This document shows positions 27,592 to 50,759 of a DNA stretch of 64,000 nt, piece after piece. The translations under genes were made by a program, and so were the position numbers. Source of the DNA: Verrucomicrobiota bacterium (lineage in GTDB: Bacteria; Verrucomicrobiota; Verrucomicrobiia; Opitutales; Cerasicoccaceae); NCBI GenBank assembly GCA_039818205.1, contig JBCBUK010000009.1, positions 96,001-160,000 of the forward strand, given 5' to 3'. The notes under the pieces are model-generated. The model was not told the origin of the DNA and made no database searches. It worked only from the letters and a program-made list of their open reading frames with translations. The stretch's first letter is position 1; the number at the start of each line of letters is the position of its first letter.

Positions 27592-28464
27592 TTAACGGGT
27601 GAACAGCGCCTTGGTCAACAGCCAGAGCTTATCCGGGGTTTTGATTTTCGGACGTTGGGCGAGCGTATCGAATTTAAGTTCACGAATTTTTGATAAGATT
27701 TCGTTGCCGCCGAGCCAAGTTAGGCGGATCTCCAGGCTAAGCGGGAAGGGGAGCTCCTTCGACAAGGGGCGTCCTACATCGAACAGTGCTTGGGCACGTT
27801 TTACCTGGAGGTCGATACAAGCCCGCAGCTCAGGTGAGGCTGATTCGGCATCGAACATTTCCCGGGTGACCCCAAATTCGTCGCAGTCCTCCTCTGGGAT
27901 GTAAATTCGGCCCTCTTTACGAATATCGACGCCGATATCCTGCCAGAAATTGGCCAATTGCAGACCGGTGCATATGGCATCTGACCACTCAAAACGTTGT
28001 TCGTCGTGATGGTCGTGCAAGATTAAGACAAGCCGGCCGACAGGATTTGCGCTGCGGCGGCAATAGTCGAGCACGTCCAGGAATGTATCGTAGCTCAGGG
28101 TCTCGCAGTCCTGTTTGAAAGCGCTGAGTAGGTCGGTGAACAGTTCAACGGGAGCCTGAGTTCTGTCGATCGTGTCGGCTACCGCGGTAAAAATCCACTC
28201 GGTCTCCGGCTTCAGAGGGCCGCCCTCGACGGCATTCAGCAACTCTTCTTCGTAGGCATCCAACTGCGCAACGCGTTCCTCGGGGGTCGGGGCACCGTCT
28301 TCGCCCCAGCCCTCATCCGCGATATCGTCGGCGGTCCGGGCAAAGGCGTAGACTGCGGCCACAAAGGGGCGAATCCGGGCAGGGACGAGCCGCGCTACGG
28401 GAAAGTTTTCGTAGTGCGTGCGGGTCAATTCCAAGCAGCGGCGATAGGATTCCTCAACGGTCAT
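27592..28464 (-). CDS. hpnC: Squalene synthase HpnC
   Basis: HYENFPVA, YAFARTADDIADE, SANPVGRLVL, LQLANFWQD. Confidence 0.95.
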   Translation of the reverse strand: MTVEESYRRCLELTRTHYENFPVARLVPARIRPFVAAVYAFARTADDIADEGWGEDGAPTPEERVAQLDAYEEELLNAVEGGPLKPETEWIFTAVADTIDRTQAPVELFTDLLSAFKQDCETLSYDTFLDVLDYCRRSANPVGRLVLILHDHHDEQRFEWSDAICTGLQLANFWQDIGVDIRKEGRIYIPEEDCDEFGVTREMFDAESASPELRACIDLQVKRAQALFDVGRPLSKELPFPLSLEIRLTWLGGNEILSKIRELKFDTLAQRPKIKTPDKLWLLTKALFTR

Positions 28465-38160: not shown

Positions 38161-38793
38161 CTATTTCCCCTCGCGGGCGAATCGGCGAATCGTGTCGCCA
38201 ACGGTGTCAGGGATCGCGATGGGAATCTCTTGCTGGGCGAAGGTCTCGCGGATGTTTTCGTCGAAGTTGCGCATGTATGGGACGCAGAGAATCACCGCAT
38301 CAATCATGGGCAGGCTGCGGAGAATGATTAGTTGGCCCAAGGTGACGTTGTAGCGGCCTTGGAGCTTGTGTTTACACTCCAGGGCAATCTGGACCTCACG
38401 CCCGGACTCAGGATCGGTATATTTGACGAGGAAATCTGTCCGTAGGTTGGCCACGGTCGAGTAGCGGGTGAATGCAAGGCCTTCCTCTTCAAGGATCTGC
38501 TCGATGTCGTCCTCGAAATCAATCGAAGCTGCCTTGGCGGCGGAATATTGCCCGCCCGCGTTGATGGCCGACTGCAAGTTGACGTCCTGTACCTGTGGAG
38601 TGGGGACCGTGGGAGTCGCAATTCCATCGCTCAAAAGCTCAGATTTTTGCCCATTCAGTTCAGCCTCAACACATAGCGTAACGTAACGACTGAATGACAA
38701 TCCAATACCGCGCGCACGTTCACTAGCTCGGCTGCGCAAGTCAGGATGGAAGGAAACGCCTACCGTTTTATGTTTTTGTGTGTCTTGCGGCAT
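38161..38793 (-). CDS. RHH DNA-binding domain fused to PD-(D/E)XK nuclease-like domain
   Basis: N-terminus KTVGVSFHPDLRSRASERARGIGLSFSRYV (RHH); C-terminus FEDDIEQIL...RTDFLV...IALECK...GQL. Confidence 0.65.
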   Translation of the reverse strand: MPQDTQKHKTVGVSFHPDLRSRASERARGIGLSFSRYVTLCVEAELNGQKSELLSDGIATPTVPTPQVQDVNLQSAINAGGQYSAAKAASIDFEDDIEQILEEEGLAFTRYSTVANLRTDFLVKYTDPESGREVQIALECKHKLQGRYNVTLGQLIILRSLPMIDAVILCVPYMRNFDENIRETFAQQEIPIAIPDTVGDTIRRFAREGK

Positions 38794-38812
38794 ATTTTTT
38801 CGATTTTCAGTG

Positions 38813-38917
38813 AATTTATTATCCATAAAGCGTTGATTTATATGGACTTAATTAAAATAATAAATTTTAGATAATTAATAAATTATTGTTGCGTTTAGTG
38901 CAGAAACTTGGGACTAT
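38813..38917. promoter_or_regulatory. AT-rich divergent control region with IHF-consensus site, three TAATAAATT boxes and a putative sigma70 promoter
   Basis: AATCAACGCTTTA on - strand (38826-38838) fits WATCAANNNNTTR; perfect 10-bp inverted repeat 38813-38822/38857-38866; third box 38876-38884; TTGCGT-N17-GACTAT at 38889-38917. Confidence 0.55.
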
Positions 38918-38926
38918 TTGTTCACC

Positions 38927-39118
38927 ATGAAAACAGTAAAAAACCACACTGTCAACGTTTCGATTTCACTACCCAAGAAGCTCCGTGACGGGGCGAAAAT
39001 CGCGGCTCGCTGTGAGCATCGCACGGTCTCTGGGTTAGTTGCCTTTTTGCTGGAACATCACCTTTCGGACAACGGCTATATCCCGGCCAACAAGCGCACC
39101 ACCTCGCTTTCCCGCTAA
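38927..39118 (+). CDS. Small ribbon-helix-helix (CopG/Arc-like) protein
   Basis: TVNVSISLPKKLRDGAKIAARCEHRTVSGLVAFLL. Confidence 0.75.
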   Translation: MKTVKNHTVNVSISLPKKLRDGAKIAARCEHRTVSGLVAFLLEHHLSDNGYIPANKRTTSLSR

Positions 39119-39143
39119 CCATTTTTCCGACCTGATTTTTGCT

Positions 39144-39503
39144 ATGATGCTCATCCCACAAACCCATTTTCATTCCCTGATCGACGAGGACAAGGAATGG
39201 TATTCCGTTCAGGATGTTGCGGCCATCATTGGTCGCACCGATCAGTATGTCCGCGACTGTTTTGACAACGGTCACCTGCTTGGCCACCGCTTAGTTGGTC
39301 GCAGTCGGAATGGAGCCAGCGGTCGTCGCTCTTACCAAGTGCATCGTGATGGCCTGGTACTTTACCTCCTGGAAACCGCTAACTACGAACCGGAGGATTT
39401 TATGGAGCGCGTCGCAAGTATACTCAGCAAGCGCCACCCGGATGAGATCCAGGCAATTGCTGAGCAAGCCATTTCGACGGGGCGCCGGCGTCGGCGTTTC
39501 TGA
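39144..39503 (+). CDS. Excisionase/MerR-like winged HTH protein
   Basis: WYSVQDVAAIIGRTDQYVRDCFDNGHLLG...SYQVHRDGL. Confidence 0.65.
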   Translation: MMLIPQTHFHSLIDEDKEWYSVQDVAAIIGRTDQYVRDCFDNGHLLGHRLVGRSRNGASGRRSYQVHRDGLVLYLLETANYEPEDFMERVASILSKRHPDEIQAIAEQAISTGRRRRRF

Positions 39504-49955: not shown

Positions 49956-50759
49956 ATGGAACCGAAAAAAGCGCCTCTCAAGCAGAACCGAAACACCTTC
50001 GATAAAGTCTTTGACGCCCTAATTGATTGGGTCGAAGCCCGAAACGTCCAATTTTCCGAGGTTGGAAACCCGCCAATCTATGAATCATCCGTATTCCCAT
50101 GGGCGAAAGAGATTGAAAAGGATTGGGAGAATATCCGCGAAGAACTTGAGGATGTCCTCAAGGACCGCGAACAGCTCCCAAGTTTTCATGAGATCACCAA
50201 GGAAGTCGAGACCATTACCACCGATAACAATTGGAAGACCTTCTTCCTGGCTGGATATGGCATCGAGTGCGAAGAAAACCGTCGCCGCTGTCCAAACACC
50301 GTAATGGCTCTGGAAAAGATTCCGGGTATGAAGACGGCGATGTTCTCCATTTTATCGCCAGGTAAGCACATCCCAGCGCACCGTGGGCCTTACAATGGCG
50401 TGCTACGCTACCACTTGGGATTGGTGATTCCTGAACCGCGTGAGCAGTGCAAGATCCGCGTGCACGATCAATATTACTCCTGGGCTGAAGGCGAGGGCGT
50501 TATTTTTGACGACTCTTTTGATCACGAAGTTTGGAACGACACCGATGGTGTTCGCGTTGTTTTGTTCGTCGACTTCGAGCGCCCGCTGAAGAACCCTGGT
50601 AAGATGATCAACTCACTCGTGATTAACCTGGCCAAGCACACGCCTTATTTGAAAGAGGCGAATGACAACCAGAAGAAGTGGGAAGAAAAATTCTACGCTG
50701 AGAAGAAGAAAAAGGCTGCGGAAGAGAAGGAACGTGAAACCGTCGGCGCCGATAAGTAG
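49956..50759 (+). CDS. Aspartyl/asparaginyl beta-hydroxylase family Fe/2OG dioxygenase (LpxO-like)
   Basis: AMFSILSPGKHIPAHRG, LRYHLGL, FDDSFDHEVWN, RVVLFVD. Confidence 0.92.
   Translation: MEPKKAPLKQNRNTFDKVFDALIDWVEARNVQFSEVGNPPIYESSVFPWAKEIEKDWENIREELEDVLKDREQLPSFHEITKEVETITTDNNWKTFFLAGYGIECEENRRRCPNTVMALEKIPGMKTAMFSILSPGKHIPAHRGPYNGVLRYHLGLVIPEPREQCKIRVHDQYYSWAEGEGVIFDDSFDHEVWNDTDGVRVVLFVDFERPLKNPGKMINSLVINLAKHTPYLKEANDNQKKWEEKFYAEKKKKAAEEKERETVGADK

Follow-up and report, generated by a model that had tools for sequence, protein, structure and literature searches.

A divergent RHH-nuclease/RHH/winged-HTH cassette of Opitutales as the proposed switch of a domesticated Mu-type GTA-like head cluster

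The analysed window, a stretch of 64,000 nucleotides from an Opitutales bacterium of the phylum Verrucomicrobiota (genome G000), carries three genes, named P1, P2 and P3 here, around a divergent control region (Table 1). The leftward gene encodes an RHH-nuclease fusion, and the two rightward genes encode a small RHH protein and an Xis/Cox-like HTH protein, so the three-gene layout described in a first-pass annotation is real. As that annotation stated, no integrase or tRNA gene was found near the trio, and the cassette is flanked by unrelated chromosomal genes that differ between genera. For the cassette and its relatives, we computed folds, linkage, selection, co-occurrence, the prophage ancestry of the layout and a conserved promoter motif. 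Elsewhere in the window, sequence inspection alone pointed to a squalene/phytoene synthase-like gene (27592-28464) and an aspartyl beta-hydroxylase-like gene (49956-50759), and a seven-tRNA array lies within ~1 kb on another contig of the genome (G000:C16:13079-14107).

Table 1. Features of the cassette and of the head cluster in the same genome. Positions are those of the window unless a contig of G000 is named.
Feature	Position	Strand	Description
P1, 210 aa	38161..38793	-	N-terminal RHH, long helix (73-103), C-terminal PD-(D/E)XK-fold domain
P1 RHH DNA-binding domain (residues 7-46)	38656..38775	-	profile match
P1 PD-(D/E)XK-fold domain (residues 89-208)	38170..38529	-	restriction-endonuclease fold
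Divergent control region, AT-rich	38794..38926	.	motifs conserved across 15 aligned cassettes
IHF-like site	38826..38838	-	exact match to WATCAAnnnnTTR
Conserved TAAAATAnTAAA element	38853..38864	+	within ~9-bp periodic AT repeats; candidate operator/UP element
Candidate rightward promoter	38889..38925	+	invariant TTG at -35-like position; conserved TGTTCAC abutting P2 start
P2, 63-aa RHH protein	38927..39118	+	Arc/Cro-like slot
P3, 119 aa	39144..39503	+	Xis/Cox/BldC-like winged HTH, conserved C-terminal helical part
Head/packaging operon, G000 (L110)	C13:2048-11315	-	compact; among housekeeping genes; contig other than the window's; only such cluster in G000
G000 cluster promoter	C13:11382-11443	-	9-bp direct repeats before extended -10

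P1 possesses the PD-(D/E)XK core fold, and the restriction-endonuclease fold suspected in the C-terminal part of this protein is thus genuine. The strand-helix-helix of its RHH domain was recognized by profile match only, with no domain passing the Pfam cut-off, and an alternative ATG start at 38826 could yield a longer protein. Among 42 homologues, E94 is present in 37, D120 in 41, E139 in 40 and K141 in 24 (with R instead in 12), and the P1 of the window has all four catalytic positions (E-D-ExK). Retention of K141 in just 24 homologues, against near-invariance of the acidic residues, would favour binding or sensing over obligatory cleavage as the role of this domain, with activity still possible. 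P1 is likely a maintenance repressor with a sensor domain, and its dN/dS was 0.06-0.27 in 8/8 genome pairs. Matches to P1 were found in 33 of the 201 genomes of the order, including 20 of full length, six to the RHH part alone and seven to the nuclease-fold part alone. In family f2, solo proteins of ~100 aa (L021-L026) match the RHH part alone and are unlinked to P3. Scans of genome contigs and metagenome contigs with P1 patterns, which demanded exact matches and had low sensitivity, gave no match.

The nuclease-fold domain of P1 is also joined to an XRE HTH, at 31 genome loci and on two viral contigs. The next gene was scanned at ten such loci, and nine of them stand before BREX, R-M, Hma-like or Lamassu-like genes. 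In Verrucomicrobiota, proteins of this composition head BREX, type I/II R-M and Hma-like operons (L183-L215, L050, L027-L030), and they possibly represent an unrecognized class of defence-island regulators. As the domain is fused to XRE at operon heads and to RHH in phage repressor slots, it belongs to regulators, and repressors with a C-terminal restriction-endonuclease fold look like a regulator class shared by phages, defence islands and the cassette of the window. A literature search combining RHH, restriction endonuclease-like fold and repressor returned only a toxin-antitoxin survey, the available text of which does not include this fusion.

P2 has the strand-helix-helix domain of RHH proteins. 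In the control region between P1 and P2, the sequence at 38826..38838 agrees exactly with the IHF consensus. Such a site is perfect in 4 of 15 control regions against 0.3 expected, a comparison in which the relatives are not independent, and all four perfect sites lie 94-105 bp upstream of the GTTCA box. Two HU/IHF-family genes are present in the genome. A generic sigma-70 scan gave no match at the candidate rightward promoter, and the TGTTCAC directly before the P2 start may indicate a leaderless mRNA or an operator. GTTCAC was also considered as a LexA box, and this reading was dropped because only one half-site is conserved.

P3 passes no Pfam cut-off and resembles Cox. It was found in 90 of the 201 genomes of the order (88 at E<1e-10), and in 6 of 301 genomes in a phylum-wide sample, all six within the order. 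P3 is kept even in genomes of 0.8-1.1 Mb, namely in 9/10 genomes of family f4, 10/10 of f8 and 8/9 of f19, and the head cluster described below is likewise retained at this genome size. The gene opposite P3 varies: the RHH-nuclease is present in 20 genomes, and an XRE-type repressor occurs in 33 genomes, in 31 of which it is divergent from P3 within ~1.3 kb; four genomes carry both repressor types, and neither type was detected in 41 of the 88. Because the repressor slot is interchangeable and P3 is constant, the emphasis of the first-pass annotation on the RHH-nuclease as the core of the system is not supported. In genus g2, three genomes carry both cassette types, and there the window-type cassette could serve another target.

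A role of P3 as an excisionase or recombination directionality factor found no counterpart at the locus, where tRNAs and att-like repeats were absent and no integrase family was common to the flanks. A complex prediction of P3 with sigma-70 region 4 was uninformative (score 0.02), and IMG/VR scans with patterns from the P3, P4 and P1 alignments, which needed exact patterns and had low sensitivity, gave no match. No clear CCAAC-type repeat array was seen at window-type cassettes, and autoactivation by P3 is therefore unsupported there. Near XRE-type or solo P3 genes, runs of 9-bp repeats occur on the P3 strand (L056, L057, L059 and L066, downstream of the XRE gene, and L099:7656), and these are possibly a P3 feedback promoter. 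In four small genomes (L081, L083, L085, L086), a radC-like gene follows P3 convergently, as judged by sequence inspection.

The trio is linked in 16 of the 20 genomes with a full-length RHH-nuclease. Of the 19 full-length loci other than that of the window, 15 have the linked trio, two lack P2, one breaks off at a contig edge after P2, and in one P1 stands alone. The cassette is single copy and present in 9/9 genomes of its own family. Wherever a comparison within 8 genome pairs was unsaturated, its genes gave dN/dS of 0.06-0.31, and trees of P3 and portal grouped by host family, with dN/dS of 0.02-0.31 overall; the cassette is inherited vertically and under purifying selection in Opitutales. 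No transposase match was found in 19/19 cassette loci or in G000, and head genes are adjacent in 2/19, which is not the picture of an intact Mu-like prophage. The trio is linked elsewhere, as the first-pass annotation had left to be checked, and its proposal of a phage-derived head-to-head RHH switch stands, located outside prophages in the relatives examined, and its option of a decaying remnant is not supported. Moreover, a gene named P4 (~100 aa, unknown family) lies between P2 and P3 in 11 loci, all outside the window's own genus, and has no PHROG or Pfam match. P4 was considered as an antirepressor of the XRE repressor, which is absent from 8/12 P4 genomes, and as a homologue of a 94-aa prophage gene (probability 0.4%), and both ideas were rejected.

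The layout of the cassette has relatives in prophages of the order. In the intact Mu-like prophage L141, the late genes and a repressor are followed, divergently, by a small HTH gene, a 94-aa gene, a P3 homologue (38%), a 228-aa gene and the transposase, and the four-gene form of the cassette fills the corresponding positions, the first two of them with RHH proteins. P3 homologues (35-36%) lie directly before a long ORF and a TniB-type ATPase gene in L227 and L228, and a more distant HTH occupies a similar position in L108 and L234. As well, two IMG/VR phage contigs carry relatives of the RHH-nuclease (E 1e-17 and 1e-14 to the P1 profile) in the repressor slot at the divergence point, facing a 120-aa gene and replication genes. 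The 120-aa genes look RHH-like by eye, with E>=0.11 against RHH profiles and no Pfam match.

The retention of P3 in tiny genomes led us to suspect a useful phage-derived function and to search for terminases, and the Terminase_6N family matched in 4/5 genomes and the TerL_ATPase family in 0/5. In G000 the terminase belongs to a head and packaging operon, which begins with what we read from its sequence as a holin-like membrane protein and continues with two small genes, TerL, Portal_Mu, a Mu-like protease, a decoration protein, the major capsid protein, an adaptor-like gene and a fibre gene. The fibre at the end of the cluster is a laminin-G lectin, the stub-tail genes of other families are absent, and no tail genes were detected. 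Five queries for Mu-type transposase, MuB-like and gpF proteins had no match in G000. The head and packaging genes thus occur without replication or mobility genes of their own, as expected of a GTA, and the terminase and portal genes have stayed intact under selection (dN/dS 0.05-0.17). Gene order is conserved in the chromosomal clusters examined, several of which have added stub-tail genes, while some are split or truncated; gene calls in GC-rich loci were checked by tblastn, since the greedy ORF caller often chose shadow frames.

Several variants of the cluster were observed. Adaptor and fibre genes are not beside the capsid gene in three g1 genomes, and some g1 genomes have a long inverted repeat in the leader of the matching operon, a possible terminator or antitermination target. 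In L177, L178, L109 and L159 (families f3 and f2), the cluster is split: a separate promoter-like site, which contains repeats, belongs to the portal-first part, and the terminase lies elsewhere. In G047, an apparent internal deletion, possibly an assembly artefact, fuses the 5' part of the capsid gene with a distal tail gene (L147:11815-13054), and two P3 copies are intact despite it. G000 additionally contains separate lambda-like prophage pieces (C22, C24, C32), where the holin-like and the fibre gene have distant paralogues.

A conserved motif precedes these clusters. Of 16 upstream regions inspected, 13 gave an anchored training site, chosen with a pattern that required the repeat, in which tandem 9-bp YCAACnRA repeats end ~23 bp before an extended -10 and a canonical -35 is absent. 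A matrix built without G000 gave the G000 cluster site the top score of the whole 4.85-Mb genome (24.6 vs 20.3 bits). In held-out loci of ~9 kb, the best same-strand match lay at most 450 bp upstream of the first recognized cluster gene in 13/19, and among further untrained clusters, two scored 25-29 bits and two had no such score. A repeat-only model was far weaker, placing the best window in 3/19 and one of the top five of 27 windows in 12/19, so that a large share of the signal resides in the -10 and the A-tract. The motif was also found before prophage late genes in L108 (27 bits) and weakly in L234 (11 bits), and the matrix had no match in L233 or in L141 (0.7 bits), which holds the closest P3 homologue. 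BldC was reported to bind 9-bp direct repeats head-to-tail (PMC11963761), and Cox of phage P2 to activate the phage P4 late promoter (PMC3936717). By analogy, repeats upstream of the core promoter would suit a direct-repeat-binding activator of the BldC/Cox type.

P3 and the head cluster are distributed alike in the order. Among the 201 genomes, 80 have both, 8 only P3, 10 only the cluster and 103 neither, and the cluster is present in 17 of the 20 genomes with a full-length RHH-nuclease; portal orthologues of at least 45% identity were found in 87/201 genomes and capsid orthologues in 79/201. Of the P3-only genomes, two have copies of prophage type, and the terminase is present in one. On re-search, portal, capsid and terminase were absent from G006 (92% complete, 310 contigs) and G027 (96%, 200 contigs), which have cassettes, and P3 was absent from G186 and G137 (96%), which have head genes. 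In trees of P3 and portal (53 and 49 rows), the backbones of which were unresolved, sequences of one host family grouped together and prophage copies stood apart, and P3 and portal distances were correlated in 26 genomes (Mantel rho 0.59, 0/2000 permutations). This pattern demonstrates co-inheritance rather than regulation, and shared descent alone would give it, since the relatives are not independent and any two genes of the clade would co-occur with congruent trees. In addition, P3 and portal share a contig in 11 genomes, in four of which, from four families, P3 lies within ~12 kb of the cluster, including two (G134 and G047) with the cassette type of the window. In six of the 11, a distance of 80 kb to 1.1 Mb separates the two loci, and short distances are over-represented when assemblies are fragmented.

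P3 is proposed as the activator of the head cluster, and the cassette is, on balance, probably the detached switch of a domesticated Mu-type GTA-like particle of Opitutales. Among the options of the first-pass annotation, a domesticated regulator of dispersed phage-derived genes is thus the one favoured, with the head cluster as its likely target. In this model, where we infer which protein binds which site, the way regulation runs, the nature of the signal, and that particles form and transfer genes, P1 bound to the intergenic region would hold the rightward promoter off. Its C-terminal domain would stand in place of the sensor domain of CI, and a signal, most likely nucleic acid or DNA damage, would lift repression. 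P2 would tune the on state or lock it, like Arc or Cro, and P3 would accumulate and assemble head-to-tail on the 9-bp repeats that directly precede the -35 position in the cluster promoter. P3 could then switch on the holin-like, terminase, portal, protease, decoration, capsid, adaptor and fibre genes, the products of which would package chromosomal DNA, and the particles may bring the cell's own DNA to other cells.

P3 and the cluster could also have been domesticated together and be functionally apart today, with P3 acting as a host regulator or a BldC-like nucleoid protein and another factor driving the cluster. We consider this unlikely. It would account for the discordant genomes (G006, G027, G137, G186), for the cassettes of G047, which stay intact and selected despite the deleted cluster, for the many P3 genomes with no detected repressor, and for the missing promoter match in L141. 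However, P3 is the one gene kept with the cluster among the early-region genes tested, the promoter architecture fits a direct-repeat-binding HTH, and close linkage of P3 and cluster was seen in four independent cases. It is improbable that P3 is mainly a Cox/Apl-like repressor of the leftward promoter, or that the cassette confers immunity to related Mu-like phages by silencing head genes, although P3 resembles Cox, which represses Pc (PMC3936717), the control region holds periodic AT repeats, and the hosts also carry related prophages. If immunity were the function, the repressor should be the part that is kept, yet its slot is variable and P3 is constant, and the repeats sit upstream of the core promoter, where activators bind.

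The remaining alternatives concern the product of the cluster and the nature of the cassette itself. There is a slim chance that the switch controls the cluster and the particle is no GTA, serving instead in killing or adhesion, as a DNA store or as a decoy; the lectin fibre end and missing stub-tail genes of the G000 cluster, and the displaced adaptor and fibre genes of the three g1 genomes, would suit such a particle, whereas the intact and selected terminase and portal imply DNA packaging. A toxin-antitoxin or defence module, another option of the first-pass annotation, in which P1 would be the toxin, an active nuclease, and P2 the antitoxin, is very improbable. The intact E-D-ExK motif of P1 and the position of the XRE-fused domain at the head of BREX, R-M and Hma-like operons speak for it. 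Nevertheless, the genes are divergent, unlike a type II toxin-antitoxin pair, the cassette is single copy and vertically inherited, K141 is replaced in 18/42 homologues, P1 occurs without P2 in 3/20 loci, PADLOC found no match, and in defence islands the domain occupies the regulator gene.

If the detached-switch model is correct, this would be a Mu-derived GTA, retained even where the genome is very small, in a phylum for which our searches returned no described one. Demonstrated GTAs are few, and a candidate is difficult to distinguish from a dead prophage as long as no way of inducing it is known. The cassette names P3, P1 and a promoter, and the group has named cultured genera, which makes the Opitutales candidate directly testable. 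Our literature search returned nothing specific on a described GTA or domesticated cluster in Verrucomicrobiota or Opitutales, and supplementary survey tables could list such clusters; the new part would be the proposed link of the switch to the cluster via P3 and the promoter motif. A more far-reaching version, to which we hold only tentatively, is that of an independently tamed Mu-derived GTA whose master switch moved away from the particle genes. In it, a Cox/BldC-like activator, kept even in 0.8-Mb genomes, would be gated by an undescribed nucleic-acid-sensing repressor of REase fold in place of a self-cleaving peptidase, and its sensor domain would likewise stand at the head of defence operons and of phage switches throughout Verrucomicrobiota.

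The immI region of phage P22 (Mnt/Arc/Ant) has two head-to-head RHH repressors, the smaller of which is co-transcribed with a downstream effector. A head-to-head RHH switch is hence not unprecedented, contrary to what the first-pass annotation implied, and the cassette shares with immI the two RHH genes and an effector gene after the smaller one. Unlike in immI, the large RHH protein of the cassette carries a PD-(D/E)XK domain, the locus is chromosomal and vertically inherited, and the third gene encodes a DNA-binding winged HTH, whereas the immI effector is an antirepressor.

The early region of Mu is ordered c / ner / A / B, with Pe regulated by IHF (PMC3820752). The prophages L141, L108, L227 and L228 have this layout in common, with the P3 homologue before the transposase, while in the window RHH proteins replace the HTH repressors of a Mu-like immunity region and G000 has no match to transposase, MuB-like or gpF queries. 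P3 shares its fold class with Cox of phage P2, RdfS and BldC, winged HTHs which, according to the accessible parts of the reports, bind short direct repeats as head-to-tail filaments and can activate promoters (PMC3936717, PMC11963761). P3 differs from them in an extra conserved helical C-terminal part and in the absence of an integrase partner. Inactive REase domains have been proposed as sensors rather than nucleases (10.1101/2025.10.09.681413), which agrees with the role suggested for P1; in the excerpts of that study these domains are paired with NTPases, whereas here the domain is fused to RHH or XRE repressors and keeps most catalytic acids.

In the CcGTA of Caulobacter, RogA represses gafYZ and GafY with IHF activates the GTA cluster, and GafA of RcGTA is comparable, as stated in the available text (PMC11150451). 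Unlike CcGTA, the system proposed here has a Mu-type head rather than one of RcGTA type, a putative repressor of RHH-nuclease fold and, as candidate activator, a single small Xis/Cox-like protein. The proposed control of the head cluster nevertheless resembles that of CcGTA and RcGTA (PMC11150451) in a putative repressor-activator module apart from the structural cluster, a putative activator-dependent promoter and an IHF-like site.
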